Part shown: piece after piece, positions 1-46,912 of the stretch
Layout of the letters: every line of letters starts with the position of its first letter
Position numbering within the stretch: position 1 is the stretch's first letter
From: Methanobacteriota archaeon
GTDB taxonomy: Archaea > Thermoplasmatota > Poseidoniia > MGIII > CG-Epi1
Length of the DNA stretch: 47,174 bases
Direction: 5' to 3'
NCBI GenBank assembly: GCA_016845825.1
Contig: JAERSJ010000108.1
Location: 1-47,174, forward strand
Made by a program: the position numbers and the translations under genes
The notes under the pieces: model-generated
Databases searched by the model: none
Seen by the model: only the letters and a program-made list of their open reading frames with translations
What the model was told of the DNA's origin: nothing

Positions 1-2233
1 TATCAGAAATATCGATATCAATTGCATCTGATTTCGCATCATAAATCATCGAGTTTGATAGGCTTATTTCACTCGAATACAAAATATGAATAAGATCATC
101 ATAGTTAACATTATTGGAAATGCTAAGGTTAGACATATCGACCCTTTTAGAAGAATAAATAGAGAACATCCCAGTAAATACATACCCATCAAAAGTGCCA
201 CCACTACCGCCTGACATATTTGTATATTTAAAAGTCGAATCACTAGTTCCCTCACCAACGAGAGCTACAACTCCCCACGGATGTTCTCCAGCTCCAGCTC
301 TTATAAATTTAATATTTTTTTCTTGAGACCCAATAGATTTAACTCTATTTTTAAAAATAACTGATGCATCTGGGCCCAATTCGATGATTGTACCGGGCAA
401 TATAGTAATCGGCTGGTCAATGATCACTAGCTTCTCGATATAGACCGTACCCTGCCAAACCAATTCTTCGACTTCGGGTGCAAGATTCAACGGCGTATTA
501 CCTATTGCGCTGGAGTACTTTTTAAGGTCTATATCTCTCTCAGAAAGCTTAAATTCATTAGACCCAAAAAACATGACAGATACTTCTGTAACTGGAGCCG
601 CTTCATCAAGTAAGAATGAAAATATTGTGGGTTTTATTTCGAATCCAACACCAGCTTTAAACGTTGTTATCCGTGACCTATCATCTTGAGGCCTTATTCT
701 ATTTGAGGTCAAAGCAATATCAAATATAGAGCATCCATTCTGATCTACTGTACCTTCAAATAGAAGGGAGTCTTGGCTCGCTATCCAAAGCCGCTTGGGC
801 TGCGCACCGACAATTGAGCATACTTTTATTTTGTTAGTAGGTGTATAGGCGTCAATGACAAGATCTAACCTATCCCCAGTTTGCCTCCAAGAGACTAATT
901 TGGGTGATTCAAGACCTCTCTTAAGTTCACTCTCAATAAAATCTATTCTTTGCAAAAGCTTTTTGAATTCACGTTCCATAGCGCCATCAAACATCAAGCT
1001 CTTATCAAACTCATTTGTAAGGGCAAATTGAACGTGAGACGGATCATCTCTCCATGACTGCTTTATGAATTCAAAGATACGGGAAGCCTCTTTTCTTATT
1101 TCGCTATAGAAGTCCTTCTCAATAAGACTGTTCAGTATTTTATACTTTTCATAAAGGAAACTGGAGTTGTTGGTATAAACCTCGGTTAAAGCATGTGCAG
1201 CATTGTCCATTATAAATGGCTCTGTAACCAGTAAGCGGGATTTTGTATCATTGAAAATTGTGTCAAAAGCTATAGGATAAACTTCGCCTCGCCAGGGATC
1301 ACTGATAAGGTACATATTGTTTGCTTCATAGTTGTGCCAAGACTGCATAATAGTTTCATATGCAGAGAATCGGGCCCACCGCTCCACGTTAGCAATCTTT
1401 TTTAGCTTCTGTAATTTCGAGAGATCATTTACAGAGGACCTTGTTAAAGTCAAAAATTCTTCTAGATCAGAGTAATCAGACTCAGCCCGAGCATTGAACA
1501 CAGCTCTTTTTTCCCACAAATATGGGTTATTAAAAAGGTCGTTATCCTGATTAAGTGGCTTGTCTGTTCTGGAGGGAGTGCCTTTATATACGTTAACAGG
1601 CATGGAGCCAGTCATTCTTAAGAAGTTTTCATCTATATGCTGAGTCTCTAGATACAGCCCCTGGTACTTATCATTAATATACAGTTCCACAAATTGGTAC
1701 TTTGGAACTGAAATATTCATCCGCTGAGCTATGTAGTAACCCAAATAGGTATTGATGAGGGCAGTGTCTCTAGGTAAAGAATAATTGAACACCCTCATTC
1801 CATCTTTTAAATTGCTTTTCTTTCTTTTAATTCTCCAGGACTTTTTATCATGCAACCAATTATTTGGGTTATCTCCTCTGTGCTTGACACTTATTTTTTT
1901 TAGTTCACCTGCGTCAACGATAAGACCATCAACCCACTCTTTAACTGAGAGTGGAAGTTTCGCTACTAACTTCTTTTGGTTCTTCTCTGATATGTATAAC
2001 CGTACTTTTTCGACATTAGTGCTATGTGGCCGACGAATTGACTTATAAGACTTTTCGAAAGAACTAAGGACATCCATTTCAACAGAATTATATTCTCCGA
2101 GTGACTGTCCTTCTAAAATATACACTGACTTCCATAAAGCGCCAATTGAGTTAACCGAGCCCACTAGAAAAGCTATCAACACAATAATCAGCACAGATAG
2201 ACCAGTTCTTTTTTGTTGTTTTGAGAGAGTCAC
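1..2233 (-). CDS. CotH-family atypical kinase-like protein with N-terminal membrane anchor and C-terminal beta-helix-like repeats; 3' end runs off the window (not in the ORF track because it has no in-window stop)
   Basis: Manual minus-strand translation from GTG (2233-2231, 1 nt after the upstream stop) stays open to base 1 (~744 codons). N-terminus VTLSKQQKRTGLSVLIIVLIAFLVGSV is a TM anchor. CotH-like motifs: VKHRGDNPNNW..KKSWRIKRKK, LPRDTALINTYLGYYIAQRMNISVPKYQFVELYINDKYQGLYLETQHIDENFL, WHNYEANNMYLISDPWRGEVYPIAFD. Distal part (GGSGGTFDGYVF.., SNLSISNNVNYDD.., YDAKSDAIDIDISD) looks like parallel beta-helix turns. Confidence 0.75.
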   Translation of the reverse strand, partial: MTLSKQQKRTGLSVLIIVLIAFLVGSVNSIGALWKSVYILEGQSLGEYNSVEMDVLSSFEKSYKSIRRPHSTNVEKVRLYISEKNQKKLVAKLPLSVKEWVDGLIVDAGELKKISVKHRGDNPNNWLHDKKSWRIKRKKSNLKDGMRVFNYSLPRDTALINTYLGYYIAQRMNISVPKYQFVELYINDKYQGLYLETQHIDENFLRMTGSMPVNVYKGTPSRTDKPLNQDNDLFNNPYLWEKRAVFNARAESDYSDLEEFLTLTRSSVNDLSKLQKLKKIANVERWARFSAYETIMQSWHNYEANNMYLISDPWRGEVYPIAFDTIFNDTKSRLLVTEPFIMDNAAHALTEVYTNNSSFLYEKYKILNSLIEKDFYSEIRKEASRIFEFIKQSWRDDPSHVQFALTNEFDKSLMFDGAMEREFKKLLQRIDFIESELKRGLESPKLVSWRQTGDRLDLVIDAYTPTNKIKVCSIVGAQPKRLWIASQDSLLFEGTVDQNGCSIFDIALTSNRIRPQDDRSRITTFKAGVGFEIKPTIFSFLLDEAAPVTEVSVMFFGSNEFKLSERDIDLKKYSSAIGNTPLNLAPEVEELVWQGTVYIEKLVIIDQPITILPGTIIELGPDASVIFKNRVKSIGSQEKNIKFIRAGAGEHPWGVVALVGEGTSDSTFKYTNMSGGSGGTFDGYVFTGMFSIYSSKRVDMSNLSISNNVNYDDLIHILYSSEISLSNSMIYDAKSDAIDIDISD

Positions 2234-2234
2234 T

Positions 2235-3230
2235 TTAAGAATCGCAAGAGGTGGAATTATTAAGAGCTAATTTTTTAATCGTTGCTTCAATTACGACCTT
2301 ATCCGCTAAGTGATCGACAATACCCGGCAACTCAAAAAAAATATTCTCTCCCCTAGGGTTCATCGAAATAACGCTACCATCGATAAAGTAACCAGTTTCA
2401 GGGTAGAGAGAAATAGCATCTTCTTTGTAAGAGCGAAAAAGTCGGCCCTCTGAATAAAGTTGTATATTGTGAAAAGACACTTCTAATCCGCCACCTACGG
2501 CCAATCTTAAAGATGGTGAAATTAGCTGATTTTGACCTCCAAGTATAAATTCATATTTTGTCCGCTCACCCAACTGGACACCTTCATTCAAAAATAAATC
2601 TCGAACATTATCTTTCGAAAACTCCAGCGCCAATCTTCTAAAACCAATACCAAGAAGCGTTGACGACTTAGACTCTTTATAGTCTCCAAATTGCGCACTC
2701 TTGTATGCAGCGCACCATGCTTTCTTATCCTCTGTATCACTGGATTTTCGAACTATAATATTCGCCAATTGGAAAATACGCTGGTCTGAGGGAAGAATCA
2801 TCATTGCCTTATCAAGATAGCTTAAAGATTTTTCTACGTCTTTAAATTGGTAAGCACTTGCCAACATGATATTAATATCTATATGCCTCGGATTTAAAAA
2901 ATAAACTTTTTCTAAAAGATCAATAAATCTTTCTCGCTCTTCCCTTAAGACAGCCACCTCATATGCTTTCTTAACATTTTCCAACAGGCCTGGTGTGAGT
3001 CGATTGTTTTGTCCGCCATAAGAATTTGCTAAATCATATTGCCGATACAGCCATGGTAAGACTCTATCGAAATCGCGAGTAACAAGCCCACCCTTCATCG
3101 ACTGCATAAACGCAAACTCAGGAAAGTGTATGATCCCTGTAAAAATTATATGGCGTGCTTTAGGTTGCGCTAACAATGTAAGCATGCCTAGAAATACCGT
3201 AATAAATATTATTAAAATTGACTTTCTCAT
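2235..3230 (-). CDS. Exported hypothetical protein (signal peptide, TPR-like helical middle, beta-rich C-terminus); function unknown
   Basis: ORF track, 331 aa. N-terminus MRKSILIIFITVFLGMLTLLAQP resembles a signal peptide. ATGA start/stop overlap with the upstream gene. No family recognised by eye. Confidence 0.5.
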   Translation of the reverse strand: MRKSILIIFITVFLGMLTLLAQPKARHIIFTGIIHFPEFAFMQSMKGGLVTRDFDRVLPWLYRQYDLANSYGGQNNRLTPGLLENVKKAYEVAVLREERERFIDLLEKVYFLNPRHIDINIMLASAYQFKDVEKSLSYLDKAMMILPSDQRIFQLANIIVRKSSDTEDKKAWCAAYKSAQFGDYKESKSSTLLGIGFRRLALEFSKDNVRDLFLNEGVQLGERTKYEFILGGQNQLISPSLRLAVGGGLEVSFHNIQLYSEGRLFRSYKEDAISLYPETGYFIDGSVISMNPRGENIFFELPGIVDHLADKVVIEATIKKLALNNSTSCDS

Positions 3231-4213
3231 CTAGACACACCAAATAAAGTTTGTGCTGAATATTCGCTTGGAGGAACCTCGGAAAGTAACGATTCACCCC
3301 TAAAAAACCTGATAACTTCTTGCGTTGCTTCTATTTCCATACTGGATCTACAATCTACTGTCATTGAACCCATATGCGCAGTATTAATACAATTATCGCA
3401 ATACGACAGTTTTCCAAAATATGGCTCTTGTTCATAAGTATCTATAGCTGCACCCCCAATAATTCCATCCTCGAGGGCATTAAATAAGTCATCTTCGTTT
3501 ATTATCCCGCCTCTCGAAGTATTAATGATATAGGCAGATTCCTTCATCAACCTGAGTTGATCTTTCGTTATCATATTGTATGTTTTGTTAGTTAACGGTA
3601 CATGAAGGGAAATGATATCTGAGTTTGCATAAATATGTTCTTTACTGCAAACAGTAACATGGTCTCCGAAACCCTGTAAATTATCATTAATATCATTGAT
3701 AAAAATATTTTTCGAGCCAAAGCCAATGAGGTGATTTATAACCCTACGTCCAATTCGCCCACCTCCAATAATCCCTATATTAATTTGCGATAGCCTACAG
3801 CCAAAATACCTCTCCCATTTGCCGTTAAGGAAATCGGTATTCGACTTAGTAATAGATCTTGCTAATGAGAGCATTAAACCTATTGCTAACTCCGCCACAG
3901 CTGGCGCGGGCGCGTCAGGGGTGTATGATACCTTGACTTTATTCCTTTTAGCTGCACTTAAATCGACAGAGTCCAGGCCGATACCGACGCGAGATATAAA
4001 CCGTAGATTCTTTCCACGATCAAAAACTTCCTGACCTATCTCTTCTGTGCCTGCGATTATAGCATCGAAATCCGTTATTAATTCAGCTAGCTCTCCAGGC
4101 TGAAGCTTTCTATTAAGTGGGTTTATAACATATTCGATATGGTTCTCATCAAGAAGATCTAAAGGTTGAGAATTCATATTTCCAAAAGGTATTGTTGTCA
4201 CCAAAACTTTCAT
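3227..4213 (-). CDS. D-isomer-specific 2-hydroxyacid dehydrogenase (phosphoglycerate-dehydrogenase-like), NAD-dependent
   Basis: GIIGGGRIGRRV Rossmann motif, SRGGIINEDDL, and a catalytic-His region TAHMGS. Confidence 0.8.
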   Translation of the reverse strand: MKVLVTTIPFGNMNSQPLDLLDENHIEYVINPLNRKLQPGELAELITDFDAIIAGTEEIGQEVFDRGKNLRFISRVGIGLDSVDLSAAKRNKVKVSYTPDAPAPAVAELAIGLMLSLARSITKSNTDFLNGKWERYFGCRLSQINIGIIGGGRIGRRVINHLIGFGSKNIFINDINDNLQGFGDHVTVCSKEHIYANSDIISLHVPLTNKTYNMITKDQLRLMKESAYIINTSRGGIINEDDLFNALEDGIIGGAAIDTYEQEPYFGKLSYCDNCINTAHMGSMTVDCRSSMEIEATQEVIRFFRGESLLSEVPPSEYSAQTLFGVSR

Positions 4214-4225
4214 ATCAATCGATCC

Positions 4226-5659
4226 TTAGGTGCATGTATTATTAACAGCGACCGAGATCAAATATTCATATATTCGCTTGGATACATGCGAGTCTGAATA
4301 ACAATAATCACTATTTTTAATTATTTTTTGAGTAGATTCGACCCTAGGAGGGGCAAGAATACATCGCTTTAAATTTTTATAGTCGCTTATCACATTTTCG
4401 TCTGCATGGACAAACTGATTGATAAAAGGATTCCCTTTATCTGGATCTAAAAAAATAACATTTAATCCATGTCCTGCCAGCTCATAACCCATACTCGAAC
4501 CATAGGTAATGATAAATTTTGACCGGTACGCCAACTCGTAACTATCGATATTTTTCTCTAAATATGTAATACCGCTGCCCTCTATGATCTCCAACTCTTT
4601 TTTATCAAAAATCCAACTAGGGTGATGCTTTATTGCTATACGCAAGTTTTGTGACTCACTCGCGAGCTTAACTAACCACGCAACAGATTTGTAATAACCT
4701 CTCCAGTCAGTTCTTGAAGAAGTTATGGCATTTATCCCTACAAACAACACATCAATGCTTGGACTCTTCTTCAGAGTAGCTGTATCTAATTTGCGTATAG
4801 ATTTTTCCATAGCAAATGACCCAACTGGAAAAACATGATCTACCCTCCCTCCAAGAGACAGCGCATCTTGCAACGTTTTATCGCCATAGGAGAAAAAAAT
4901 ATCAATGTCATAGAACAATGCTAGACCATCATGTTGAACGATATTTTTCTGAACACATGCTGCCACAACACCACCAGACTGTTTAAACAAATGATTCTTT
5001 AACGCATTAGTTCTACCTAAATTTCTATCTTGGATCATATATTTGGCAGAAAAAATCTTGAAAAGAGAGTAGTAATATAAATAATCATTAATAAAGAATG
5101 AATGCAGATGAATCAGATTTATATTTAGCCTAAAGGAATACCAAACCAAAAAAACAAGATCCCTAAAAAAGAATCTGAGACTGCCACGCAGCAAAAGACT
5201 CCTATCATAGCCCTTTAAAATCTCACGAGAAATGACAACACTGGTATCTGATTTAATATTCCTAGATTTAGCAACGTAAACAGTTTGCGGGGATGTAAAC
5301 TCCTGCTCCAATGAATACCATCTATCAAGCTCATTCTGCTGTTGAATATCATCAATCAATAATGAAAACTTTTGACTCTTCCCTATTATTTTCTTTGAAA
5401 ATACAAAAACTGAAAGCATAAGCCCAAGATATTTGATGATGGATACAATTAGATAATTTAAGGAAAGAGCCCGGTTAAATTTAGATAACTTCAAATCATA
5501 GTTAGAAGCTATTCTTTGTTTTATATACTGTGAACTTACCTTATGCGGGACACCAAATCTGTCTGAGTAAAAAGAACCAATCTCCTCTCCAACCTGATCG
5601 GTAAACATAGAGGTAATTTTTAATTCCAAAATTTTTACGGTCGCAAAACTTTTACTCAT
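4226..5659 (-). CDS. Membrane-anchored putative TagF-like phosphotransferase / GT-B-fold transferase
   Basis: 477 aa with one hydrophobic helix (LNYLIVSIIKYLGLMLSVFVFS). C-terminal IAIKHHPSW ... FIITYGSSMGYELAGHGLNVIFLDPD resembles the K-HP ... ITDYSS ... P-I-F pattern of CDP-glycerol glycerophosphotransferases. By-eye resemblance only. Confidence 0.35.
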   Translation of the reverse strand: MSKSFATVKILELKITSMFTDQVGEEIGSFYSDRFGVPHKVSSQYIKQRIASNYDLKLSKFNRALSLNYLIVSIIKYLGLMLSVFVFSKKIIGKSQKFSLLIDDIQQQNELDRWYSLEQEFTSPQTVYVAKSRNIKSDTSVVISREILKGYDRSLLLRGSLRFFFRDLVFLVWYSFRLNINLIHLHSFFINDYLYYYSLFKIFSAKYMIQDRNLGRTNALKNHLFKQSGGVVAACVQKNIVQHDGLALFYDIDIFFSYGDKTLQDALSLGGRVDHVFPVGSFAMEKSIRKLDTATLKKSPSIDVLFVGINAITSSRTDWRGYYKSVAWLVKLASESQNLRIAIKHHPSWIFDKKELEIIEGSGITYLEKNIDSYELAYRSKFIITYGSSMGYELAGHGLNVIFLDPDKGNPFINQFVHADENVISDYKNLKRCILAPPRVESTQKIIKNSDYCYSDSHVSKRIYEYLISVAVNNTCT

Positions 5660-5690
5660 TCTAACATCTCCCTAACCCTAGCCTAGAATG

Positions 5691-6155
5691 CTAGTGATCA
5701 CTTCCGACGTTAACTTTGATTGTAACTTTTTTAATAAACTCTGCAGTACCGTCACAATGTTTAGGAGAATGCCCGTCCTTTTCAAAAAAAATGGCGAAAA
5801 TACCATTTCCAATGTCAGCATATGTTGATTGGCTATGTGGACTTGTGAAATAAGTTCGGTCCTCTTCGTCTTGATATGGGACTTCTGTATCCATACCTTC
5901 AATCGGCGACCACAAAACTTTTTCTATTCCATAAATTGGGTACTGTATATCTATTACTCTCTTATGAGACTCAAATAGAATACTGCTTTGATCTGACGTC
6001 ATGTACTCCTCAACAATTGCTTTGACGTTATCATTTATAGTGTAAACACCTAATTCGACATCAGGTTTCATGTCCTTTAAAAACAAAAGGCCCTTATAGA
6101 TATCAGGCGATAGATTCTTATAAATCTCTATATTGCTGAGGGTGTCTATTATCAT
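5691..6155 (-). CDS. YhcH/YjgK/YiaL (DUF386, NanQ-like) cupin, sialic-acid anomerase family
   Basis: Aligns by eye with E. coli YhcH: [21 protein letters not shown] vs [47 protein letters not shown] vs GMFAVFMPGEPHKPGC..EIKKVVVKV. Confidence 0.7.
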   Translation of the reverse strand: [154 protein letters not shown]

Positions 6156-6182
6156 TCTATATTATCCAATAATATCGGTAAA

Positions 6183-7142
6183 TCAAACCGTCTTCCTTAA
6201 AAACACTCTATAATGATCACCCAACAAAAGATCATTTAAAGTATCCTGCATATTAATGATTCTCTCAGTGATATCTACCTCAAATTCTTCTAAAAGGATA
6301 GTTTGTAAATCCAAGCCATTTGTTTCGATTGATACTATCTCCAGATCAAAATCCTGAGCAATTTTTTCTATTACCGTCTTTGAAAAAAATATGTTATGCC
6401 TACCACTTTCTATGTACCGAGTGGGGGAAAAAGGAACCTTTTTTAAATATTCACTAATAAAGCAATTTGCAGACGGAACCTCAAAAACAATCATTCCAGA
6501 AGGGTCTAATACTTCACATGCTTTTTTTACAGCTAAAACAGGATCTGAAAGATGTTCAAGTACTCCCCAGAAGGTGACAACATCAAATTTTTTTTCAAAA
6601 CTCATTTCATTGAAATCACCATGATGAATTGTAATATTGTGCGTACTAGTTGAGTTAGGGGAGGGATCCACGCCTTCTGAATTCCATCCATTTTCATTAC
6701 ATATGTCGAGGAAAGTGCCACTGCCGCAACCGACATCCAACAAATCAACTTCATCTTTTTCTAGTAATACTCGAATTTGCTCGAATTTTCTCTGCTCAAG
6801 TATGCCTTTTCTTAATTTGCTCCCTTTTTTTACTAGATTATCCTGATAGTATTGATAAGTTCCATCACTATATAACGACTCCAACACCCCATCTCTCAAA
6901 TGAGGTTTTGTATAAAGGGAGTTGCATGATAAACAGCGATGGTAGGCAAAATTATCAATCTCGAATTCTTCAACACTTAGCTCTGCTTGACATATGGGAC
7001 ATGCTCTGACGTGAAAGTATTCAGCCTTAGGCGAACCATCCTTGGTGAACCATTTTTTTATACTTTTTGAAAAAAACTCATGTACGCTTACCAAGTCTTG
7101 TTTTGACTTTAAGAGAAATAAGTCCAATTTTATTTTATCCAT
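6183..7142 (-). CDS. Class I SAM-dependent methyltransferase with N-terminal CxxC...CxxC zinc ribbon
   Basis: CPICQ...CLSCN; motif I LLDVGCGSGTFL; VTFWGVLEHL. Confidence 0.8.
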   Translation of the reverse strand: MDKIKLDLFLLKSKQDLVSVHEFFSKSIKKWFTKDGSPKAEYFHVRACPICQAELSVEEFEIDNFAYHRCLSCNSLYTKPHLRDGVLESLYSDGTYQYYQDNLVKKGSKLRKGILEQRKFEQIRVLLEKDEVDLLDVGCGSGTFLDICNENGWNSEGVDPSPNSTSTHNITIHHGDFNEMSFEKKFDVVTFWGVLEHLSDPVLAVKKACEVLDPSGMIVFEVPSANCFISEYLKKVPFSPTRYIESGRHNIFFSKTVIEKIAQDFDLEIVSIETNGLDLQTILLEEFEVDITERIINMQDTLNDLLLGDHYRVFLRKTV

Positions 7143-7170
7143 TTTACTTACTGACCTTTACAAGTTGGCT

Positions 7171-7845
7171 TTAATTATCGTTCTTAGCGAATAGACGTTT
7201 AAACATTAATTCGCAAAAATCAAAATCTTCTTGAGTATCAATATCCCAAGAACTTAACTTATCCATATAATAGAAACTGGGTGAACTCCCGACACAAGAG
7301 CCCCACTTAATCATATCAGTTCTTTTGAGAATATTTATCGCAAAGGTTAAAGAACATAACCCATGAAGATCTTGAGATCTTGGCCAAGGATTTGGAACAA
7401 AATTGACGGGTACGCCATTGTAAAAAATATTTTCTTGGACATTAATAGCACTCAGAAGACAGTCATAACTAGTTTCCATCTCACGATATAACTCTACTGC
7501 TTTAGAATAAACATGTGAATCCGATAGAGGATTTGTCGCGTTTATCCAAGCAATATTATCACCCTCAATCTCAGATGCGATAAAAGAATACACTTCGCTC
7601 ATCGGGATGTCGCTTGTTGAGTACTTAGGGTCACGTTCATGAATATCAAATCCATTAGCGATCGCAATATCCAAGACTTTCGGGCTCTCAGACGAGACAA
7701 TTAATTTATCAAAACCTTCAGCTCTGGATAGCTGATCTAGCTTTACTTCTAGTAAAGATTTGCCATGAAACTCTCTTAAATTTTTATTTGGAACTCTCTC
7801 CGAAGTCCCCTTGATAGGAATCAAACCAACAATACTACCAATCAT
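7171..7845 (-). CDS. Acylneuraminate (nonulosonate) cytidylyltransferase family, NeuA/LegF-like
   Basis: N-terminal GLIPIKGTSERVPNKNL matches the CMP-sialate synthetase type motif (..PARGGSKR.P.KN.). 224 aa. Confidence 0.7.
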   Translation of the reverse strand: MIGSIVGLIPIKGTSERVPNKNLREFHGKSLLEVKLDQLSRAEGFDKLIVSSESPKVLDIAIANGFDIHERDPKYSTSDIPMSEVYSFIASEIEGDNIAWINATNPLSDSHVYSKAVELYREMETSYDCLLSAINVQENIFYNGVPVNFVPNPWPRSQDLHGLCSLTFAINILKRTDMIKWGSCVGSSPSFYYMDKLSSWDIDTQEDFDFCELMFKRLFAKNDN

Positions 7846-7924: not shown

Positions 7925-9655
7925 TTACGCGTCAGCTTGTCCGATTCCCTCTTCTAAAGTTTGGAACCAATCATCATCCCAACAGATGCTGCTCAACCCG
8001 AATTTCTTAAGGAAGATTCCTACCACCATCTGTACCGAATCTGAATACCACCACTCATCATAGTCATCTTTAACTTCCATAATGTGTTTTAATAAAGAGT
8101 TTTCATCATAATGCAGTACACCACACGCTCTTAACTCGTTGAAAAATTCTGCCGCCATCTGGTTCATTTCCCAATACTCTTCTCTGATAAATAAACAGGT
8201 TGGTATATTTAGCGTCAGAGCTTCTAAAAAAACTGTTGAATCATAACTAACAATAACCAACGCAGATCTCGAGAAACTTTCAATGAGAGATTGTTCGTTA
8301 GAGTATACGAAATTGGATATTCCAAATTTGCCGTATTCGATATCTAAATCCCATAAATCTCTTCCACTTTTAAGCCTGATGAGAATATCATCTTTGAAAA
8401 CTGGACCATCGAGTGTATTGAAGAATCGAGAATGTAATTCTAGGCAACCATTGAAACTAGTAGATAACGGCGAAGAATCAATATGATTACTATATCTAGA
8501 AACACTATATGGTATAAATAAAATCTTATTATCAGATTTTTTGATTTCTAAATCTCGTAACAAAGAGAGCTTGGGAGAAGGCCAATTACAGTTTCCCCAG
8601 CCCCAAGAATAAAAACGATCAGCTATCTCTTCGGTTAACTTTCCGGGTCCATTGAATAGCGCAGTACCATGATGTCCTCCATGAACCGTAACCCATAATT
8701 TAGTACCATCATTTTTTTTTCTAGCACACCACACTTTAAAGTGCTCATTAGAAAAATAAGCACCTGAAGTAACGATAAGGTCCACATTCTCTGGAAAAAT
8801 TTTCTTAGAATCTTCTTCTAAAGATCGATATCCCTCCAAATAAGAGATCGGAATATTTAATGGAATAAGCTTATCAATAAGTCGTTCAAAACCTGTGTCA
8901 TCAGAACTAGGAGTAAAAAAATTGGCGCGCATATCCCAGTTTAACTTGAACGATTTAGGCTTAGCTCTTAGGTAGTAGGCAAAAGACAAACTTTTCAATT
9001 TATAAAGTAATTTGTAAAGAAACCTCTGGGGTAAATCAACTTCCACAAACACAACTTTTCTGTCTTTATTTCTTAAAAATTTTGTCATTGCAAACAAGAA
9101 GGATTTTATTTTTGATGGCTTTCTTAGAGGATATCTTATGTTGGATGGATTCAATTTGAATGATGTTTCTTTCACTTTAACTAAGCCAGTGAATTTTATG
9201 ATTTCCGAAAATAAATAATGATTCCACTCGTCGCTATAAAATTGATAGTTAAAATCAACATAGTCTAAAGGCACCCAATCATCGCGATCATATGAAGCTA
9301 GCCTAGCGTAGTCAATGTCATAGTTTTTAGATGCAAAAGAGAGTGTTTCATAACGATCTAAAAGGATTGAGATAAAATAATGAAGCCAAGGACCAACAAT
9401 AACTCGCCAGAATTCAACAGAGTGGTTAACTTTGTGCTTTAGATTTAATGACTGAGTCATTTTTAACAAATACTTTTCATAAAGTTTCCATACCAATTGG
9501 TAATCTCTAAAAAGCTTACTTCTATCATCCCAATGGTACTCTGATATCATTGCCGTACGGTTATTAGATGGGTCACACCATGCACCTAAGAGTAGAGTAT
9601 TTAACTCAGAATCGCCCCTATCCAAAGGTGTAAGTTCTAATACGAGTTTACTCAT
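7925..9655 (-). CDS. Large cytoplasmic hypothetical transferase (GT-B-like C-terminus; from memory resembles the LIC12162-type O-antigen-locus family)
   Basis: 576 aa with no TM or signal peptide. C-terminal ALVIVSYDSTVFLEALTLNIPTCLF resembles the nucleotide-sugar-binding half of GT-B/TagF-like enzymes. Contains an A9 tract (T9 on the plus strand, 8712-8720). Confidence 0.3.
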   Translation of the reverse strand: MSKLVLELTPLDRGDSELNTLLLGAWCDPSNNRTAMISEYHWDDRSKLFRDYQLVWKLYEKYLLKMTQSLNLKHKVNHSVEFWRVIVGPWLHYFISILLDRYETLSFASKNYDIDYARLASYDRDDWVPLDYVDFNYQFYSDEWNHYLFSEIIKFTGLVKVKETSFKLNPSNIRYPLRKPSKIKSFLFAMTKFLRNKDRKVVFVEVDLPQRFLYKLLYKLKSLSFAYYLRAKPKSFKLNWDMRANFFTPSSDDTGFERLIDKLIPLNIPISYLEGYRSLEEDSKKIFPENVDLIVTSGAYFSNEHFKVWCARKKNDGTKLWVTVHGGHHGTALFNGPGKLTEEIADRFYSWGWGNCNWPSPKLSLLRDLEIKKSDNKILFIPYSVSRYSNHIDSSPLSTSFNGCLELHSRFFNTLDGPVFKDDILIRLKSGRDLWDLDIEYGKFGISNFVYSNEQSLIESFSRSALVIVSYDSTVFLEALTLNIPTCLFIREEYWEMNQMAAEFFNELRACGVLHYDENSLLKHIMEVKDDYDEWWYSDSVQMVVGIFLKKFGLSSICWDDDWFQTLEEGIGQADA

Positions 9656-35064: not shown

Positions 35065-35574
35065 AATTGCTAACTCCAAATTTATCTAAAAGAGATTACT
35101 AAAACGGGTAAAATTGACAATATCTAATAGCTCAGCTACCCACTCCAATCAGACTAAGTCACTTTCAACTGACTCAGCGTTATCAAATACGCAATATCTT
35201 GCATTCCAAATATGGCAACCCAGCTATTACTCTCACTTTGCACCCAAACGGGAGGCATTTTTAGAGCTTATTCCATGGGATCTAACGAACTCTCTTCCCG
35301 CCCGCAAGGTAGAAATATTAACGATTGCACCACGACCTGTTAAACCAAAAGTCAGGAGCGCCAAAAGAGCAATAACCAAGTGTTTTTGAGCATACTCTTA
35401 CTCGGGATATTGGTAGGCCTCTAAAGCTATCTCGAAAAACCTATATTTTACAAGAACTTCGTGCTTTCAGCCATTAATTTTGCAATCAACAAACCGACAA
35501 TCGTTACTTTTAATATTTACGTTAGGCTCACCCCGTCGTAACAACTTACTTGTAACACGTATCTGTATAAACCC

Positions 35575-35727
35575 TTACAGCGTCAATCGACTTGGTGCGT
35601 TAAAATTTCCCACGACAGGCACATCGAACCCAGACGTAATAGCTTTTTTAGACAGCTTGGACACGCCGCTGACACCCCAAAGCATTAGAAGCATTCCAAC
35701 AAGCAGTATCAATGAGAATCTGTTCAT
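35575..35727 (-). CDS. Possible 50-aa small hydrophobic/exported peptide (below the ORF-track size cut-off)
   Basis: Manual translation: MNRFSLILLVGMLLMLWGVSGVSKLSKKAITSGFDVPVVGNFNAPSRLTL*. Starts 12 nt after the galU stop. No convincing SD. Confidence 0.25.
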   Translation of the reverse strand: MNRFSLILLVGMLLMLWGVSGVSKLSKKAITSGFDVPVVGNFNAPSRLTL

Positions 35728-35739
35728 AGGGTCAACTAT

Positions 35740-36636
35740 CTACCAGGCGTTTGATTCAAAGAGTTTCTTTATGACTGATTTAGTTTCAGCATCTCTCATA
35801 CCCACCGCCAGGTTTGCACCCAAGAATCCCTGCTTGTTTCCACAGTCATGGATCTCGGCATCCGTCTCAAGGGCGTTCAAACCCTCAAGCTTAAGAAGCT
35901 CATCCAGTGCATCGGTCAGCTGAATCTCTCCACCCACACCAGGAGTCGTACTCTCAAGAAGCTCAAGCACCCTAGAGGGCAATACATAACGACCCAGTAC
36001 CGCCAAGTTGGATGGCGCATCCTTTAGTGAGGGCTTCTCAACGAGCCCATTAACAGGCTGACTTTTAAAGGGCTCGGCTAACTCACCGTTCAGGTCCGCA
36101 ATGCCGTAGCTCTCCACGGCATCAGGCTGGACACGCTCGACCATGACCTGGCCTGTGCCCGTCTTATCCCAAGCCTTTACCAGCTGGGCGAAACTATAGT
36201 TATTGTCCCTTGACTCTTGGTCAAGGACCAACACATCCGGCAACAGGACAGCGAAGGGCTCGTTATTTAAAAGGTGCTTGGCACAAAGAACCGCATGGCC
36301 CAGGCCCAACGCATCACTCTGTCTAACCGAGAAGATTTTAATACCCTCAGGAACAACATTCTTCACCGTGCCCAGAATCGTTTCCTTACCCTTTCTCTCC
36401 AGACGGTGCTCAAGCTCGTAGTGCGCATCAAAGTGGTTCTCGATGGCCTCTTTGCCACTTCGTGTCACAAAAATAATCTCCGTAACACCGCCCGCGATGG
36501 CCTCCTTGACCACATGCTCAATAATCGGGCGGTCAAATACGGGGAGCAACTCCTTGGGTATGGCCTTTGTCGCAGGCAGCATGCGCGTGCCAAGGCCCGC
36601 GACAGGGATGACTGCTTTTTTTATTTTAGCTACCAT
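35740..36636 (-). CDS. galU: UTP--glucose-1-phosphate uridylyltransferase
   Basis: KAVIPVAGLGTRMLPATKAIPKELLPV and full-length GalU-like sequence. Confidence 0.95.
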   Translation of the reverse strand: MVAKIKKAVIPVAGLGTRMLPATKAIPKELLPVFDRPIIEHVVKEAIAGGVTEIIFVTRSGKEAIENHFDAHYELEHRLERKGKETILGTVKNVVPEGIKIFSVRQSDALGLGHAVLCAKHLLNNEPFAVLLPDVLVLDQESRDNNYSFAQLVKAWDKTGTGQVMVERVQPDAVESYGIADLNGELAEPFKSQPVNGLVEKPSLKDAPSNLAVLGRYVLPSRVLELLESTTPGVGGEIQLTDALDELLKLEGLNALETDAEIHDCGNKQGFLGANLAVGMRDAETKSVIKKLFESNAW

Positions 36637-36686
36637 GGCTTACCCTTTAGATTCAAAACAGTGAATGCTACTGATTATCAACAGCA

Positions 36687-37682
36687 CTATATATCAAATT
36701 TTGTCTTAATAAGATCGAATTCCTGCGCCTCAAGTCGAGGCCCAAATTGTGCAACCACCCTGGCGGCACAGTCATTGGCCAAGTCAGCCGCCCAGCCATA
36801 ACTTCTACCTGAGGTGATGGCATACAGGAAGGCACCTGCAAACATATCACCCGCGCCATTGGTATCAATGGCCTCTGCCTTAACACCCTCAGACTGATTA
36901 AGAGAGTTACCATCAAAGGTAACGGCACCCTTAGCGCCATCGGTGATGGCGAAGGTCTTTGTGTACCGCTTAAGGCTCTCTGCGGCCGCGTCTAAGGTCT
37001 CGGTACCAGTAAAGGCCATGGCCTCGTCCTTATTACAAAAGATCAGATCCACCCCATCCCCTATCACTTGCCTCAGGGCATCACCAAAGACTGACACCAC
37101 AAAGGGGTCTGACAGGCTGATTGCAACCTTAACACCATTAGCCTTGGCTAGCTCAACGGCAGCTTTTGTGGCCGCTGTTCTTGCCTCGTCGGTGACCAAG
37201 TAACCCTCAACATAGAACCACTCTGAATTTACTAGCGCGGCCTGATCAATCTCACGTGCTGATAAGTCCTCGCCCGCGCCTAAGAAGGTGCTCATGGTTC
37301 GCTCAGCATCATCGGTCACCATGACCAGACACTTGCCGGTAATGCCTGGCTCCTGGCCTGCAGAATGAAAGTCGACACCTGCCTCTTTTAAGTCATCAAT
37401 ATAAAGCTGACCATCAGTATCATCAGCCACCTTGCCACTAAAAAAAGTTTGAGCGCCCAAACTACTGGCGCCTACAACCGAGTTACAGACAGAGCCACCA
37501 CACTTGCGGAGCATGGAACCAGTCTCAGCTGAAAGAGCTCCTAGCAGTTCAGTCTGTCGAGCCTCATCAACCAATGTCATGACGCCCTTATCAATGCTTG
37601 CATTGGCCAGAAAAGCATCAGACACCTCAACCTCCGTGTCCACCAGTGCCGCGCCAATGCCATAGATATCGTACTTTGTCAT
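36687..37682 (-). CDS. PfkB-family carbohydrate/nucleoside kinase (adenosine-kinase-like)
   Basis: GIGAALVDTE N-terminus and DTNGAGDMFAGAFLYA (PfkB motif 2). Confidence 0.8.
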   Translation of the reverse strand: MTKYDIYGIGAALVDTEVEVSDAFLANASIDKGVMTLVDEARQTELLGALSAETGSMLRKCGGSVCNSVVGASSLGAQTFFSGKVADDTDGQLYIDDLKEAGVDFHSAGQEPGITGKCLVMVTDDAERTMSTFLGAGEDLSAREIDQAALVNSEWFYVEGYLVTDEARTAATKAAVELAKANGVKVAISLSDPFVVSVFGDALRQVIGDGVDLIFCNKDEAMAFTGTETLDAAAESLKRYTKTFAITDGAKGAVTFDGNSLNQSEGVKAEAIDTNGAGDMFAGAFLYAITSGRSYGWAADLANDCAARVVAQFGPRLEAQEFDLIKTKFDI

Positions 37683-38020
37683 TTCTTATTCATCTCTTGC
37701 TGTTGACGAACCTCTTCCTGTAAATGGGCGATTTCTTGCTGTAGCTCGTTATATTCCCTCTGCTTTCTCACCAAGAACCGAGCCGTGATGGCGGCCTTCT
37801 CCGCGATACCCATGGGCGTGAGCAGGTAGGCATAGCCCCACTTATTATCGGACTTTTGAAAGTTATCCAGCTTAACCCAGCCCACATCAATTAGAGACTT
37901 AACCAGGTAATGGGTTTTACCCAAGCTAATACCCAGCTCCTTAGCTAGCTGGCGCTGAGTAAGATCAGGTTGCTGCTCAAGGATCTTGAGCGCGCGATAT
38001 TCGAGCTCTTGGTTTGACAT
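37679..38020 (-). CDS. EPS-associated MarR-family transcriptional regulator
   Basis: 113 aa with winged helix LTQRQLAKELGISLGKTHYLVKSLIDVGWVKLDNF..NKWGYAYLLTPMGI, typical of the EPS-locus MarR subgroup. Confidence 0.8.
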   Translation of the reverse strand: MSNQELEYRALKILEQQPDLTQRQLAKELGISLGKTHYLVKSLIDVGWVKLDNFQKSDNKWGYAYLLTPMGIAEKAAITARFLVRKQREYNELQQEIAHLQEEVRQQQEMNKK

Positions 38021-38053
38021 AAATAAGGAGGATGAGTCGTTTATAGTTTCAGG

Positions 38054-38065
38054 CAGGCTACCGCA
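38054..38065 (-). promoter_or_regulatory. ops-like (RfaH-recruitment/JUMPstart-type) element
   Basis: Minus strand reads TGCGGTAGCCTG versus the ops consensus GGCGGTAGnnTG (core GCGGTAG and the TG intact, first G mismatched). Preceded on the RNA by a possible 8-bp hairpin (38066-38087, includes 3 G-U pairs). Lies 34 nt upstream of the MarR start. Confidence 0.4.
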
Positions 38066-38126
38066 GGACCCTGTGGCAACAGAACCCTACATGACGAAAA
38101 ACATCACACATCACGGGTCTTTCGCG

Positions 38127-38172
38127 TGTTCATATAATGAACAAGATAGCATAAGTGAATAAGATTACAAGT
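38127..38172 (-). promoter_or_regulatory. Promoter-like module 1 with palindrome (putative operator)
   Basis: Minus strand: TTGTAA-16 nt-TGcTATCTT followed directly by the palindrome GTTCATTATATGAAC. About 80% identical to module 2, which lies 89 bp away. Confidence 0.4.
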
Positions 38173-38215
38173 TTGAAGCACCAATATACGAACTATATTA
38201 TCGCTTACTCTGGAA

Positions 38216-38262
38216 TGTTCACTCTATGAACAACATATCATAAATGAATAATATTACAAATA
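38216..38262 (-). promoter_or_regulatory. Promoter-like module 2 with palindrome (putative operator)
   Basis: Minus strand: TTGTAA-16 nt-TGaTATGTT followed directly by GTTCATAGAGTGAAC (GTTCA-N5-TGAAC). A third partial copy (GGAATGTTAAC) sits at 38271-38281. Confidence 0.4.
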
Positions 38263-38293
38263 TAAAGTATCGGAATGTTAACTAGGTACGCTT

Positions 38294-39400
38294 TTATTGG
38301 GAATTATTTGAGGGTTTTCCGGCACTGATAAAGATCAAGCCATAGAGACCACACTGAGCCAGAAAAACAAAAAACCAGAGATTGCTTGAGATTGGGATTA
38401 AACCACCGACATAGCCTCCCAACGCAACCCCAGAACTGCCTAAAGCTATTGATAAACCCGTGGCAGAATTTGCCATGTTTTTAGACTTAAACAGGGACTT
38501 AAAGTATGCATGAACACGATTATGGAGGTGATCATTATCTGGCGCCATCATGGGTTGGCCATCAAGGCGCCTGCGAATGATACTGACAATGAAATCAAAG
38601 CAAGGGTAGAAAAACAGAACTGCCAAGAATGAGAGGGACACCGCCCCCTCACTAAAGGCGGTCAAGCCAGTGAGCAGCATGGCCGAACCAATGCCATAGG
38701 CTCCAGCATCACCCAGAAATAGACGCCCTGAGACCACGTTAAAGATTAGAAATAAACTCGCCCCGTACAAGCCTGCGGGGAGTGCGATTCCATCCATCTC
38801 TGCAGTGAATATGTAACAATTAATGACAAAAATACCAACCACCAAACCATTGGCACCATCAACCGTGTTCACCGCATTGATAAACCCTACGGAGAAAAAA
38901 AGACAAACCACGAAAGCAACAAAAGGAATACTCAGCAACCAATCTACACCAGGCAATCCGATACCGCTAGGTACCAGTTGTGGCGCTAATAAGAAAACGA
39001 CCACTAGCACCAAGGCCTTGCTGATCAATCGAAATCTGGGGGATAAACTGTTATTGCGCAGGTCTTCAATCAAACCAAGGGCAAAGCATCCAGCCGCACC
39101 TAACCATATGGGCCAGTTGCCCTGCACCTGAGAAAAAACCTCTGGCGCTGTGTCAGCATTGAACATAAAAAGGGCCAAGGATATTAAGACACCCAGCACC
39201 AGAGCCACCCCGCCTAGGCGCGAGGCTTGCACCTCTGCAATGCCATGCTTGTCCACAGCATCTGATGCATAACTCTGCAACGTCATCCACTGCATGAGCA
39301 AGATAATAATTAAACCGCCAACACCAAAAGCCGCGGTTGCCAAAAGAGACATTACCGCAAGCTTAGAGAGCTCGCGCCCGGAGAGAGTGAATAAGTTCAA
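38294..39400 (-). CDS. MraY/WecA-family (GT4) polyprenyl-phosphate N-acetylhexosamine-1-phosphate transferase, paralogue 2
   Basis: Polytopic. IEDLRNN, INAVNTVDGANGL, FLGDAGAYGIG. TTG start per the ORF track. Confidence 0.8.
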   Translation of the reverse strand: MNLFTLSGRELSKLAVMSLLATAAFGVGGLIIILLMQWMTLQSYASDAVDKHGIAEVQASRLGGVALVLGVLISLALFMFNADTAPEVFSQVQGNWPIWLGAAGCFALGLIEDLRNNSLSPRFRLISKALVLVVVFLLAPQLVPSGIGLPGVDWLLSIPFVAFVVCLFFSVGFINAVNTVDGANGLVVGIFVINCYIFTAEMDGIALPAGLYGASLFLIFNVVSGRLFLGDAGAYGIGSAMLLTGLTAFSEGAVSLSFLAVLFFYPCFDFIVSIIRRRLDGQPMMAPDNDHLHNRVHAYFKSLFKSKNMANSATGLSIALGSSGVALGGYVGGLIPISSNLWFFVFLAQCGLYGLIFISAGKPSNNSQ

Positions 39401-39513
39401 TGCTTAAATCCCTATCAATTTAAAGGCAATCTGAGTCCTGTCAGAGAGCTATTTGAAACTGCATAGAAGTATATCTTCTTTATAGCTTATTATCCAGCGA
39501 ACAAACTAAATAA

Positions 39514-40641
39514 TCAAAGCCTAAGCTCATATTGAACGTTCACGCGGCCTAAACCTGTTAGATAAAAGACGGTCCAGTAACCAATACACTGGAATAGGAA
39601 AAGCCAAGCCCAGAGGTCGCTAGTCACTGGCCACCACTGATAAATGTACCCCACAGCAGTTAACCCAGAGGATGAGGCCACCACAAGGCCACCAGTCATA
39701 GAGTTAGCCAAGGTTTTTGATGGTAGCCAACGCTGGAAGTGATAGTGAATACGATTGTGCAAATGATCATTATCAGGCAAGAAGATTGACCGGCCCGCCC
39801 CATAGCGGCGTGCCAAGGTCATGATAAAATCAATGCAAGGGTAAGCGAAAAGACAGGCCAAAAAAGCAGCAGAGAAAATATCATCGTAAAAAAGATACAA
39901 CCCTGAAATCGCCAGAGAGGCGCCAAGGCCATAGGCCCCGGCATCGCCTAAAAAGAGTCGCCCTGAGATGACGTTGAAAATAGTAAACACTGCACACGCG
40001 GTCATCATGGCGGCATAAACAAATTCACCCGTACTCACATAAAAAAGGCTGAAGGCGATGGTCATTACGCCCGCTATGAGCCCGTTAGCGCCATCTGCCA
40101 TATTGATCGAATTAACAAATCCTACACAGAATATTACCGTCAGTAGCCAGCCAATAACTGGCAACCCCATAAGGACGTGAAGACCGGGAATACCCAAATC
40201 AACAGGAATTAACGCGGGCCATACCGCTATAGTCACGGCGAATATTCCAAACTCTGCATACAACCGAAACCGAGGACTCAAGTAATTGTTGTGCAGATCT
40301 TCTACCAGCCCAAGGAAGGCACAGCACCCCACGGCGATCCAATCAACCCAGTAAGGGCCGGCCGGCCCACCAGAGGCATCACCAAAGTAGTCACTAAAAT
40401 AGCCGGCAACCGACAGGCCTAACCAGCTCGCAAATATTGCCGCACCACCAAGCCGGGAAGCAGAAACGCGCGAAATACCGTGCTTATCAACAGCGTCATG
40501 AGCATAACTTTGTCGAGTAATCCACTGCAAAAAAATCATGATCATCAGGCCAGATAGACCGAAGAATATCACGGCAAGAAGCATCATCACTGAGAGCTTA
40601 GCAAGATCCATCTCTGTGAGCACGAAAAGGGGTTTAGTCAT
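39514..40641 (-). CDS. MraY/WecA-family (GT4) polyprenyl-phosphate N-acetylhexosamine-1-phosphate transferase, paralogue 1
   Basis: Polytopic. VEDLHNN, VNSINMADGANGL, FLGDAGAYGLG. Co-linear with paralogue 2 over its full length. Confidence 0.8.
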   Translation of the reverse strand: MTKPLFVLTEMDLAKLSVMMLLAVIFFGLSGLMIMIFLQWITRQSYAHDAVDKHGISRVSASRLGGAAIFASWLGLSVAGYFSDYFGDASGGPAGPYWVDWIAVGCCAFLGLVEDLHNNYLSPRFRLYAEFGIFAVTIAVWPALIPVDLGIPGLHVLMGLPVIGWLLTVIFCVGFVNSINMADGANGLIAGVMTIAFSLFYVSTGEFVYAAMMTACAVFTIFNVISGRLFLGDAGAYGLGASLAISGLYLFYDDIFSAAFLACLFAYPCIDFIMTLARRYGAGRSIFLPDNDHLHNRIHYHFQRWLPSKTLANSMTGGLVVASSSGLTAVGYIYQWWPVTSDLWAWLFLFQCIGYWTVFYLTGLGRVNVQYELRL

Positions 40642-40749
40642 GCATTTTTACGATGTTAATAGAAGTACATCCTCCATCAAACATTGCGTTAAGCCGAGTA
40701 TAAATCCACCAAGCATCCTAGATTTGCAGACGCAAGAAGCCATAAAGAT

Positions 40750-41697
40750 CTATCTGAATACAGCTATTACCTGTCGCCCATAATGCATTACCAACACGAG
40801 CATAATCGACAGCATACCGCCGAGTAAAGTACCAAATATACATATAGAAGCACGTTTGGGCTGCGATTTTTTTTCTGGGATCATGCTAGGGCTTATTGCC
40901 ACAAAGGCATAGTCAGGGCTCGCCTCGGCTAGCATTTTGTTTTTAATTTGCTCTTCAATGATAGTGTAGAGCACCTCTTGCATCTCGGTGATAGACGTTT
41001 TTTCTATCTGGGCCTTAAGGTATTCAATGTTATTGCTAACCTTGGCCACCTGACGCTCTTGCATGTGCTTATTAATCGCCGAGATATATAAGTCCAACCA
41101 CTGTTTGGCAATCTGAGGGGAATAGTGTTCTACAGAAACCGACACTAATCCGTACTGCTCATCCTCCGCAACCGTAATTCTCTTTGAGAACGCCTCAAAC
41201 AACTGCCAGCTGCTTGGAGGCCCCACGACACCAGAGTCATCCTCAATTAACCACTGGTTATTTTCGGCATCGTAAGCCTCTTGATTAATCTGTAATTCAT
41301 TTGACCCTTTACTCCAGCCTTCGGCCGCATAAACCTCAACAGCAAGGTCATTGTCAGCAATGAAACCCTCAATAAAACTCCATGAAGTCATTATTTGTTG
41401 AGCAGTATGAGCCTTACCACCACCATCACCGCCCAGACCAAGACCAGCTATCGACGCAAGACCACCAAGTCGACTTACGGCTCCTGAAAGCCCACCTCCA
41501 TCGTCAGATTGAGCTGGAGCCAAGAGAGTAATAGCCTTATATTGATTAGGTATTGACAGAGCATACACAACTGAACCAATAGCACACAACGCCGTCAGAA
41601 GGATTACCTTTATTTTACCAGCCCAGAGAACGGCAAATAGTTCTCGCAGGTCTATTTCATCATCGTACTGATCGCTGATTTGAGTATTATTTTCCAA
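40750..41697 (-). CDS. wzz: Wzz-type polysaccharide chain-length determinant (no C-terminal tyrosine-kinase domain)
   Basis: DDEIDLRELFAVLWAGKIKVILLTALCAIGSVVYAL (Wzz N-terminus plus TM1), a long coiled periplasmic part, and C-terminal TM ICIFGTLLGGMLSIMLVLVM. Confidence 0.8.
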   Translation of the reverse strand: MENNTQISDQYDDEIDLRELFAVLWAGKIKVILLTALCAIGSVVYALSIPNQYKAITLLAPAQSDDGGGLSGAVSRLGGLASIAGLGLGGDGGGKAHTAQQIMTSWSFIEGFIADNDLAVEVYAAEGWSKGSNELQINQEAYDAENNQWLIEDDSGVVGPPSSWQLFEAFSKRITVAEDEQYGLVSVSVEHYSPQIAKQWLDLYISAINKHMQERQVAKVSNNIEYLKAQIEKTSITEMQEVLYTIIEEQIKNKMLAEASPDYAFVAISPSMIPEKKSQPKRASICIFGTLLGGMLSIMLVLVMHYGRQVIAVFR

Positions 41698-41742
41698 GAG
41701 CCTATTCCTTAAACTATTAATTACCGTTGATTCAAAAAGATT

Positions 41743-44244: not shown

Positions 44245-44274
44245 TTTGTATTATTTAATTCAATTTCAATAGTG

Positions 44275-46838: not shown

Positions 46839-46868
46839 AAATAAGATGTTAACTCGTTTTGAGCCATT

Positions 46869-46897
46869 AAAAAAGGGCATCAGAGATGCCCTTTTTA
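46869..46897 (-). terminator. Rho-independent terminator/attenuator hairpin after the Thr-rich gene
   Basis: Minus strand GGGCATC-TCT-GATGCCC followed by TTTTTT. A T5 run on the plus-strand side makes it formally bidirectional. Confidence 0.6.
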
Positions 46898-46912
46898 TTA
46901 CTGTGACGCACA

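Follow-up and report, generated by a model that had tools for sequence, protein, structure and literature searches.

CotH kinases are best described in Bacillus, where CotH is a soluble spore-coat protein of 360 amino acids (aa) made in the ATP-containing mother cell. Here we describe a relative encoded on a contig of 47,174 nucleotides (nt) (JAERSJ010000108.1, assembly GCA_016845825.1; the whole of this stretch is called the window below), which was binned into a metagenome-assembled genome (MAG) of a Poseidoniia archaeon. The protein shares with Bacillus CotH its Pfam family, its fold (template-modelling (TM) score 0.83), the 'RG...KKS' motif of the N-lobe, the 'DENFL' motif, the catalytic-loop Asn, and the metal-binding Asp. 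Unlike Bacillus CotH, it is about 891 aa long, membrane-anchored and predicted to be extracytoplasmic, with a beta-sandwich and a beta-helix fused to the kinase fold. It has His or Tyr in place of Asp228 of B. subtilis CotH, and it belongs to a diderm capsule locus rather than to a spore coat. Our favoured reading, which we hold tentatively and at somewhat less than even confidence, is that this CotH-beta-helix protein acts together with a VTC-domain protein and a DUF4956 protein on the phosphoryl handling of a periplasmic glycan.

The three genes have been seen together before. In streptococci, clostridia, and bifidobacteria, cotH, a polyphosphate-polymerase gene, and a DUF4956 gene adjoin pel operons as accessory genes (Whitfield et al., bioRxiv 10.1101/768473 = PMC7112168). 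As in the loci described here, the Gram-positive trio lies by an exopolysaccharide pathway and encodes a secreted or anchored CotH, a cytoplasmic VTC-like protein, and a multi-pass DUF4956 protein. The streptococcal CotH has an FN3 fusion, is said to keep its catalytic residues, and is accompanied by a separate TIM-barrel hydrolase, whereas the clade of the window protein has a beta-helix fusion, an altered catalytic loop, a TPR/beta-sandwich partner, and loci of the Gram-negative Wzy/outer-membrane polysaccharide export (OPX) type. The Streptococcus intermedius preprint (bioRxiv 10.1101/2024.04.20.589940) describes the trio within pel operons only; here it occurs at ∼60 loci, counted irrespective of pel genes, in many, mostly diderm, phyla. 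The cotH/VTC/DUF4956 module, with its function unexplained, was thus already known, and what is new is the membrane anchor, the beta-helix fusion, the altered catalytic loop, and the setting in diderm glycan loci.

Two further systems invite comparison. The eukaryotic VTC complex resembles the module in that the gene next to CotH-beta-helix encodes a full VTC catalytic domain (as in Vtc4) with its tunnel residues and has a membrane-protein partner. However, this partner is DUF4956 rather than Vtc1-type helices, and the bacterial neighbour carries no SPX domain. Fam20B, Fam20C, and POMK are kinases of the Golgi or endoplasmic reticulum lumen; they act on the non-cytoplasmic side of the membrane, where ATP is present, and some of them phosphorylate sugars. 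None of the three gave a sequence or Foldseek match here, CotH standing alone among the kinase folds, and the periplasm, in contrast to the lumen, has no ATP. Two other roles, one in adhesion or invasion as in fungal CotH and one in the spore coat, were considered as well and dropped for a protein tethered to the inner membrane of a non-sporulating diderm.

The gene is real, although the window holds only part of it. Two short open reading frames (ORFs) of 64 and 87 aa are the only ones in the ORF listing that overlap positions 2..2233. A sequence-only reading of this DNA had proposed that the minus strand is nevertheless open from a GTG at 2233 to base 1, and an open-ended listing with translation confirms a stop-free frame of 744 codons. 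The window is a whole contig, so base 1 is the contig end, and the frame stops there because the assembly does. The upstream gene ends with a stop codon 1 nt ahead of the GTG, and homologues share this start position, using ATG or GTG. An independent metagenome contig (L007), which matches window positions 1–7473 at 97.98% nucleotide identity with zero gaps, supplies the sequence beyond the left edge: it carries a complete gene of 891 codons, of which about 147 are absent from the window, and the frame that the two contigs share is uninterrupted there. Between the window and the L007 strain, the ratio of nonsynonymous to synonymous polymorphism (pN/pS) is about 0.29 over the 744 codons. Together with the intact frame in L007, this indicates a gene that is intact in the population and under purifying selection, broken in the window by assembly alone. 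A pseudogene or assembly artefact might be suspected from the incomplete frame and from a contig that seems mis-binned (see below). We regard this as scarcely credible given the intact frame and pN/pS of the L007 strain, and the fragment keeps every one of the 56 family positions in its range whose conservation is at least 90%.

Profile searches and structure prediction agree on the CotH domain, as the sequence-only reading had supposed from motifs. The window protein matches PF08757 with 73.5 bits against a cut-off of 23.8 (E=2.8e-20; 76.2 bits in a DNA-level search), and the family profile matches B. cereus CotH (5JD9) at E=1.2e-17; B. cereus CotH (5JD9/5JDA) is the sole relative in the PDB by sequence. 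An AlphaFold (AF2) model was built from 26 family sequences for P0002, a full-length homologue that is 97% identical to the window protein (predicted local distance difference test score (pLDDT) 88.4, predicted TM score 0.86). It consists of a long N-terminal helix, an alpha/beta part (residues ∼70–442), a beta-sandwich (∼446–560), and a beta-helix (∼590–885). Its best Foldseek match in the PDB is B. cereus CotH 5JDA (E=1.4e-14, TM 0.83 on the target). Within the beta-sandwich, the pair Cys472/Cys501 is conserved in the close clade only. The 744 aa contain a single hydrophobic segment, flanked by a net charge of +3 on the N-terminal side and −1 on the C-terminal side. By the positive-inside rule this indicates an N-in, C-out protein with the bulk of CotH-beta-helix predicted to lie outside the cytoplasm, the topology that had also been proposed earlier.

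Proteins of this architecture make up a large uncharacterised family. A search with the CotH part returned 1994 representatives (of 50% identity clusters) when matches with E≤1e-3 were counted; tightening the limit to E≤1e-30 left 204, almost all of them 860–960 aa long. Of the top 150, all but a few share the ∼900-aa architecture. At least 571 relatives occur in GTDB genomes (one genome per species), spread over Proteobacteria, Planctomycetota, Verrucomicrobiota, Gemmatimonadota, and other groups; Roseovarius aestuarii KCTC 22174 and Saltatorellus ferox Poly30 are culturable carriers among them. A scan of NCBIfam returned no family for the CotH-beta-helix protein. The 79 best loci belong to alpha-, gamma-, and deltaproteobacteria (Pelagibacter and Puniceispirillaceae among them), Planctomycetota, Verrucomicrobiota, and Gemmatimonadota, along with a few Clostridia, candidate phyla radiation bacteria, and one archaeal MAG. 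Two MAGs each hold two CotH-beta-helix paralogues (L032/L037 in a deltaproteobacterial MAG and L021/L044 in another); of L032 and L037, one copy has VTC and DUF4956 beside it and the other does not.

The genes that follow CotH-beta-helix are the sole lead to an extracytoplasmic phosphoryl donor, a point that the sequence-only reading left aside. That reading had placed the gene at the distal end of its operon, which does not hold: the contig merely stops. In L007 the next ORF lies 5 nt past the CotH-beta-helix stop and encodes the first 91 residues of a VTC-domain protein. Three more distant contigs (L002, L003, and L004) have the order 331-aa protein of unknown function, CotH-beta-helix, VTC (PF09359, E=4.4e-37), and DUF4956 (PF16316). 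In a fourth contig, the carrier of P0032, the order is VTC, DUF4956, an unknown gene, and CotH-beta-helix; the linkage therefore survives rearrangement. We extended the comparison to 79 genome loci (L008–L086), scanning the ORFs of all six frames with profiles made from the neighbour genes. A VTC ORF lies within 2.5 kb at 62 of the 79, nearly always co-directional, and a DUF4956 ORF at 57. Many of the 17 loci without VTC or DUF4956 are cut by a contig end beside the gene, and about nine are genuine exceptions. In control genomes, VTC was found only where CotH was also held.

In the VTC neighbours, the conserved Arg, Lys, and Glu residues that one would look for in a triphosphate-tunnel enzyme are all kept. 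DUF4956 spans the membrane several times, ends in an MgtC/ACT-like tail, and shows weak similarity to MgtC alone. Their linkage and the kept tunnel residues could also mean that polyphosphate is the product of the module, made and exported by VTC and DUF4956 and then anchored, trimmed, or attached to the envelope or capsule by CotH-beta-helix, much as the yeast VTC complex couples polyphosphate synthesis to membrane translocation (PMC9911596). We consider this improbable: DUF4956 has no homology to the VTC membrane subunits and only the weak similarity to MgtC, the streptococcal VTC deletion is without phenotype, and VTC activity in bacteria is a prediction only.

On the contig itself, CotH-beta-helix is the last visible member of a long co-directional glycan operon. 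This operon encodes a PseB-like dehydratase, a DegT aminotransferase, NeuB, and two cytidylyltransferases, together with a GT2 glycosyltransferase, a methyltransferase, an acyl-activation set, an ABC exporter, a Wzy-like protein, and two WecA-type transferases. Its export genes encode Wzz, an OPX/Wza protein, and YjbH. The nonulosonic-acid, Wzy/ABC, and Wzz/OPX genes bear out the earlier placement of the protein inside a surface-polysaccharide locus. The presence of OPX/Wza, Wzz, and YjbH genes on the contig also agrees with an extracytoplasmic location of the protein.

The locus is probably not archaeal. The genome bin is archaeal by its ribosomal protein S3Ae (on contig C121), and a search of the bin for tmRNA, LpxC, BamA, and TolC found none of them. 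Among 201 genomes sampled in the phylum of the bin, none but this one has an OPX gene; a second contig of the bin, C171, carries an OPX gene as well. The window's YjbH shares 94% identity with a Porticoccaceae protein and 72% with a SAR92 protein. In base composition, the 35.5–47 kb part of the contig (47% G+C) is an outlier in the bin by tetranucleotides, whereas the 1–35.5 kb part is bin-like in its 37.5% G+C. Positions 35500–47174 hold the export and initiation end of the locus (Wza, Wzz, YjbH, a WecA-type protein, PfkB, and an NTP-transferase), and positions 1–35500 the biosynthetic block. The composition break fits a low-G+C serotype-specific region in a host of higher G+C, or a chimeric join. 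Taken together, the contig is probably a gammaproteobacterial (Porticoccaceae/SAR92-type) capsule locus mis-binned into an archaeal MAG, in which case the compartment outside the inner membrane is the periplasm. Such mis-binning would explain why the missing C-terminus, VTC, and DUF4956 were not found in the bin, and why no VTC or CotH beyond this contig was found in 45 genomes of its order; both searches are uninformative if the contig is foreign.

We conjecture that CotH-beta-helix is the extracytoplasmic member of a three-part module, with a cytoplasmic VTC-type polyphosphate-polymerase-like enzyme and the DUF4956 membrane protein as the other two, encoded in the variable part of a capsule or exopolysaccharide locus that would make a nonulosonic-acid glycan. 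In the periplasm, the groove of the beta-helix would hold the nascent acidic glycan, and the CotH domain, with its nucleotide/phosphate- and metal-binding residues kept, would transfer or otherwise handle a phosphoryl group on it. The phosphoryl donor would depend on the VTC/DUF4956 pair across the membrane. Residue conservation among 150 aligned full-length representatives speaks for this. The N-lobe 'RGD...KKS.R' and Glu202 of 'DENFLR' are conserved, as are Asn306 (100%), Asp312 (99%), and Asp324 (97%). Asp324 lies opposite the metal-binding Asp (Asp251 in B. subtilis CotH), and the window protein has both Asp324 and Asn306.

The catalytic Asp is a different matter. The D228Q and D251A mutants of B. 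subtilis CotH are inactive (Nguyen et al. 2016, cited through PMC7821199). We placed Asp228 and Asp251 on the 5JD9 chain as Asp224 ('NFDG') and Asp247 ('PWD') by their 23-residue spacing. In the family, the loop consensus Q-S-W-H-N-D-x-x-H-N-M-R-L-x-x-D-P, which holds in the 79 genome loci too, contains an H-x-D four residues ahead of the invariant Asn, and the motif is alike in loci with and without VTC. The Asp of this motif, Asp302, may be the true equivalent of the catalytic Asp, reached via a small indel; it is present in 53% of all representatives and in 52–68% of those in the more distant groups. The clade of the window protein has H-N-Y-E-A-N-N in place of the family's H-x-D-x-x-H-N, with Tyr302, Glu303, and Asn rather than His at 305 in all 19 of the 19 representatives that are at least 50% identical to the window protein.

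Several observations, beginning with this loop, weigh against phosphoryl handling by the module. Three independent alignments (phmmer, family-profile hmmsearch, and hhalign) set His300 opposite the catalytic Asp224 of 5JD9, and about a fifth of the representatives have no acidic residue at positions 301–304. Judged by alignment, the canonical catalytic Asp is absent from the window protein whichever of the two placements is used, with the phosphate- and metal-binding residues intact. Thus the kinase activity proposed in the sequence-only reading finds agreement in the Lys pair, Asn306, and Asp324 and disagreement at the catalytic Asp, which is replaced (His300/Tyr302). To our knowledge, no CotH-fold kinase uses anything but ATP, and the periplasm is without it. 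A literature search returned no reported activity for the CotH-beta-helix family, for bacterial VTC, or for DUF4956; it turned up just the two Pel papers and a genome survey. In S. intermedius, single deletions of SIR_1594, SIR_1593, and SIR_1592, the homologues of cotH, VTC, and DUF4956, kept Pel and aggregation, with the DUF4956 mutant slightly lower (bioRxiv 10.1101/2024.04.20.589940). Furthermore, VTC and DUF4956 are absent from the window, and their presence at this locus is taken from the 98% identical contig, which has the VTC start only, and from more distant relatives. Lastly, the glycan-gene link was found in 11 of the 79 distant loci, by phmmer with the glycan enzymes of the window, a search that is insensitive across phyla; a glycan substrate may hold for this clade alone.

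If the module does handle phosphoryl groups, loss of the canonical Asp in the clade (H-N-Y-E) implies another base, for which His300 or Glu303 would be candidates, or an altered chemistry. A more specific version of this idea is a periplasmic glycan kinase that does not use ATP: cytoplasmic VTC would make a phosphate chain, DUF4956 would pass it across the inner membrane, and the CotH domain would use it as donor on nascent nonulosonic-acid capsule held in the beta-helix groove, with His300 as base or as phospho-histidine carrier. We see this version as a long shot. If true, it would give a general answer to how bacterial surface polymers are phosphorylated where ATP is absent.

Among the relatives, only B. 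subtilis and B. cereus CotH have been characterised, and both are protein kinases; for the streptococcal homologue, the Pel papers propose protein phosphorylation (PMC7112168; bioRxiv 10.1101/2024.04.20.589940). By analogy, CotH-beta-helix could be an extracytoplasmic Ser/Thr kinase of envelope or polysaccharide-assembly proteins, with the beta-helix serving localisation only. This is rather unlikely in our view: the periplasm has no ATP, the catalytic Asp is absent, and there is no co-varying candidate substrate except the TPR/beta-sandwich partner of the closer clade. The strong conservation of the beta-helix groove likewise argues for a role beyond localisation.

The beta-helix equals or exceeds the CotH domain in conservation. 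In the P0002 model it is built of regular short strands (residues ∼590–885) with pLDDT mostly above 90. Its Foldseek matches include a GH87 glucanase, alginate, fucoidan, and PL6 lyases, capsule depolymerases, tailspikes, GH28, the AlgE4 epimerase, and NosD. By Pfam, the window fragment scores 12.5 bits against PF13229, below the cut-off of 25.9, and a scan of the P0002 beta-helix alone gave no match, whereas more distant family members score 43–53 bits, above threshold, and also match NosD (PF05048). Counting positions with a conservation of 90% or more, we find 42 in the beta-helix and 29 in the CotH domain, whereas the sandwich has none. Those of the beta-helix include a ladder on successive rungs (D712, D713, H716, D736, D739, D741, N757, D758, D761, D779, K780, E786, K807, D808, K831, W833, and Y835), of which the window holds the first six residues only (D712, D713, H716, D736, D739, and D741), the later rungs lying beyond the contig end. 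Comparison of the ladder with known catalytic motifs identified no match. The pattern suggests an active site or a specific ligand groove rather than a passive carbohydrate-binding module. The sequence-only reading had spoken of a beta-helix of carbohydrate-binding type; the model, the Foldseek matches, and the relatives' Pfam scores uphold a glycan-enzyme-type beta-helix, and the Asp/Lys/Glu ladder makes it probably more than a binding module.

This conservation, together with the missing catalytic Asp of the clade, makes a pseudokinase with an active beta-helix glycanase a serious rival to phosphoryl handling. Here, the beta-helix would be the working part, trimming, releasing, or remodelling the acidic polysaccharide in the periplasm as a lyase, hydrolase, or epimerase, and the CotH domain would only bind a ligand or a partner. 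The beta-helix is conserved as much as or more than CotH and carries the Asp/Lys/Glu ladder; its Foldseek matches include the polysaccharide-acting enzymes named above; the catalytic Asp is variable across the family; and the Gram-positive pel trio is accompanied by a separate glycoside hydrolase. Yet K130/K131, N306, D312, and D324 are 94–100% conserved, which is unusual for a dead kinase, and the near-obligate VTC/DUF4956 neighbours would be left unexplained. The beta-helix matches are also generic (E 1e-6 to 1e-3, low TM), with no catalytic motif identified. We therefore think it unlikely, if well worth keeping in mind, and continue to prefer the phosphoryl-handling module. The features discussed are collected in Table 1.

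Table 1. Features of the CotH-beta-helix gene and its upstream neighbour in the window (residue numbers refer to the CotH-beta-helix protein).
Feature	Positions	Strand	Basis
CotH-beta-helix gene, 5′ 744 of about 891 codons	2..2233	-	ORF; 97.98% nt identity to L007, which holds the full gene
Single N-terminal membrane helix, residues about 9–33	2135..2209	-	Hydropathy and flank charges; AF2 helix 5–38 in P0002
CotH kinase-fold domain, residues 117–412	998..1885	-	PF08757; profile against 5JD9; Foldseek 5JDA
N-lobe motif RHRGDNPNNWLHDKKSWR, Lys130/Lys131 opposite B. cereus CotH 'EKKS'	1832..1879	-	Alignments; 94–97% conserved
Catalytic loop Q297-SWHNYEANNMYLISDP...PIAFD324	1262..1345	-	Alignment; Asn306, Asp312, Asp324 kept
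Beta-sandwich linker domain, residues about 446–560	554..898	-	AF2 secondary structure, Cys counts
Right-handed beta-helix, first half, residues about 590–744	2..466	-	AF2 model, Foldseek, conservation
331-aa partner gene	2235..3230	-	Stop 1 nt before GTG 2233

The 331-aa partner gene lies directly upstream of CotH-beta-helix in 28 loci, all of the closer, mostly marine clade. In a confident model, a membrane helix is followed by TPR-like helical repeats and, at the C-terminus, a beta-sandwich; two Cys residues are invariant. The protein has no Pfam family, and Foldseek returned generic TPR matches and nothing more specific. It may well be a periplasmic adaptor of the module.

Other genes of these loci deserve mention. 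Past DUF4956, L002, L003, and L004 carry a CDP-alcohol-phosphatidyltransferase-like gene, a small unknown gene, and a weakly matching APH/RIO-like kinase-fold gene. A HAD hydrolase gene comes next in L002 and L003; in L004 it is found upstream of the 331-aa gene instead. This downstream phospho-group cassette occupies positions 14154–16259 in L002, 14138–16252 in L003, and 12222–14261 in L004; in the window, such a further cassette would sit past the contig end. The window also encodes two large proteins, of 477 aa (4226–5659, minus strand) and 576 aa (7925–9655, minus strand), without a significant Pfam-A match in our scans. Precomputed matches on the contigs of relatives assign the 576-aa protein to PF27859 (LIC12162) and give none for the 477-aa protein.

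The window's own contribution is small: its gene is truncated, the key partners lie off the contig, and the module is already in print. Nonetheless, energy-rich phosphate chemistry outside the bacterial cytoplasmic membrane is an open question, and a kinase fold on the outer side that is almost always encoded together with VTC-like and membrane-protein genes makes this module one of few genomic leads to it. The family is common in abundant ocean bacteria (SAR11, SAR116, and SAR92-type), where it occurs in the variable surface-sugar islands that shape interactions with phages and grazers.

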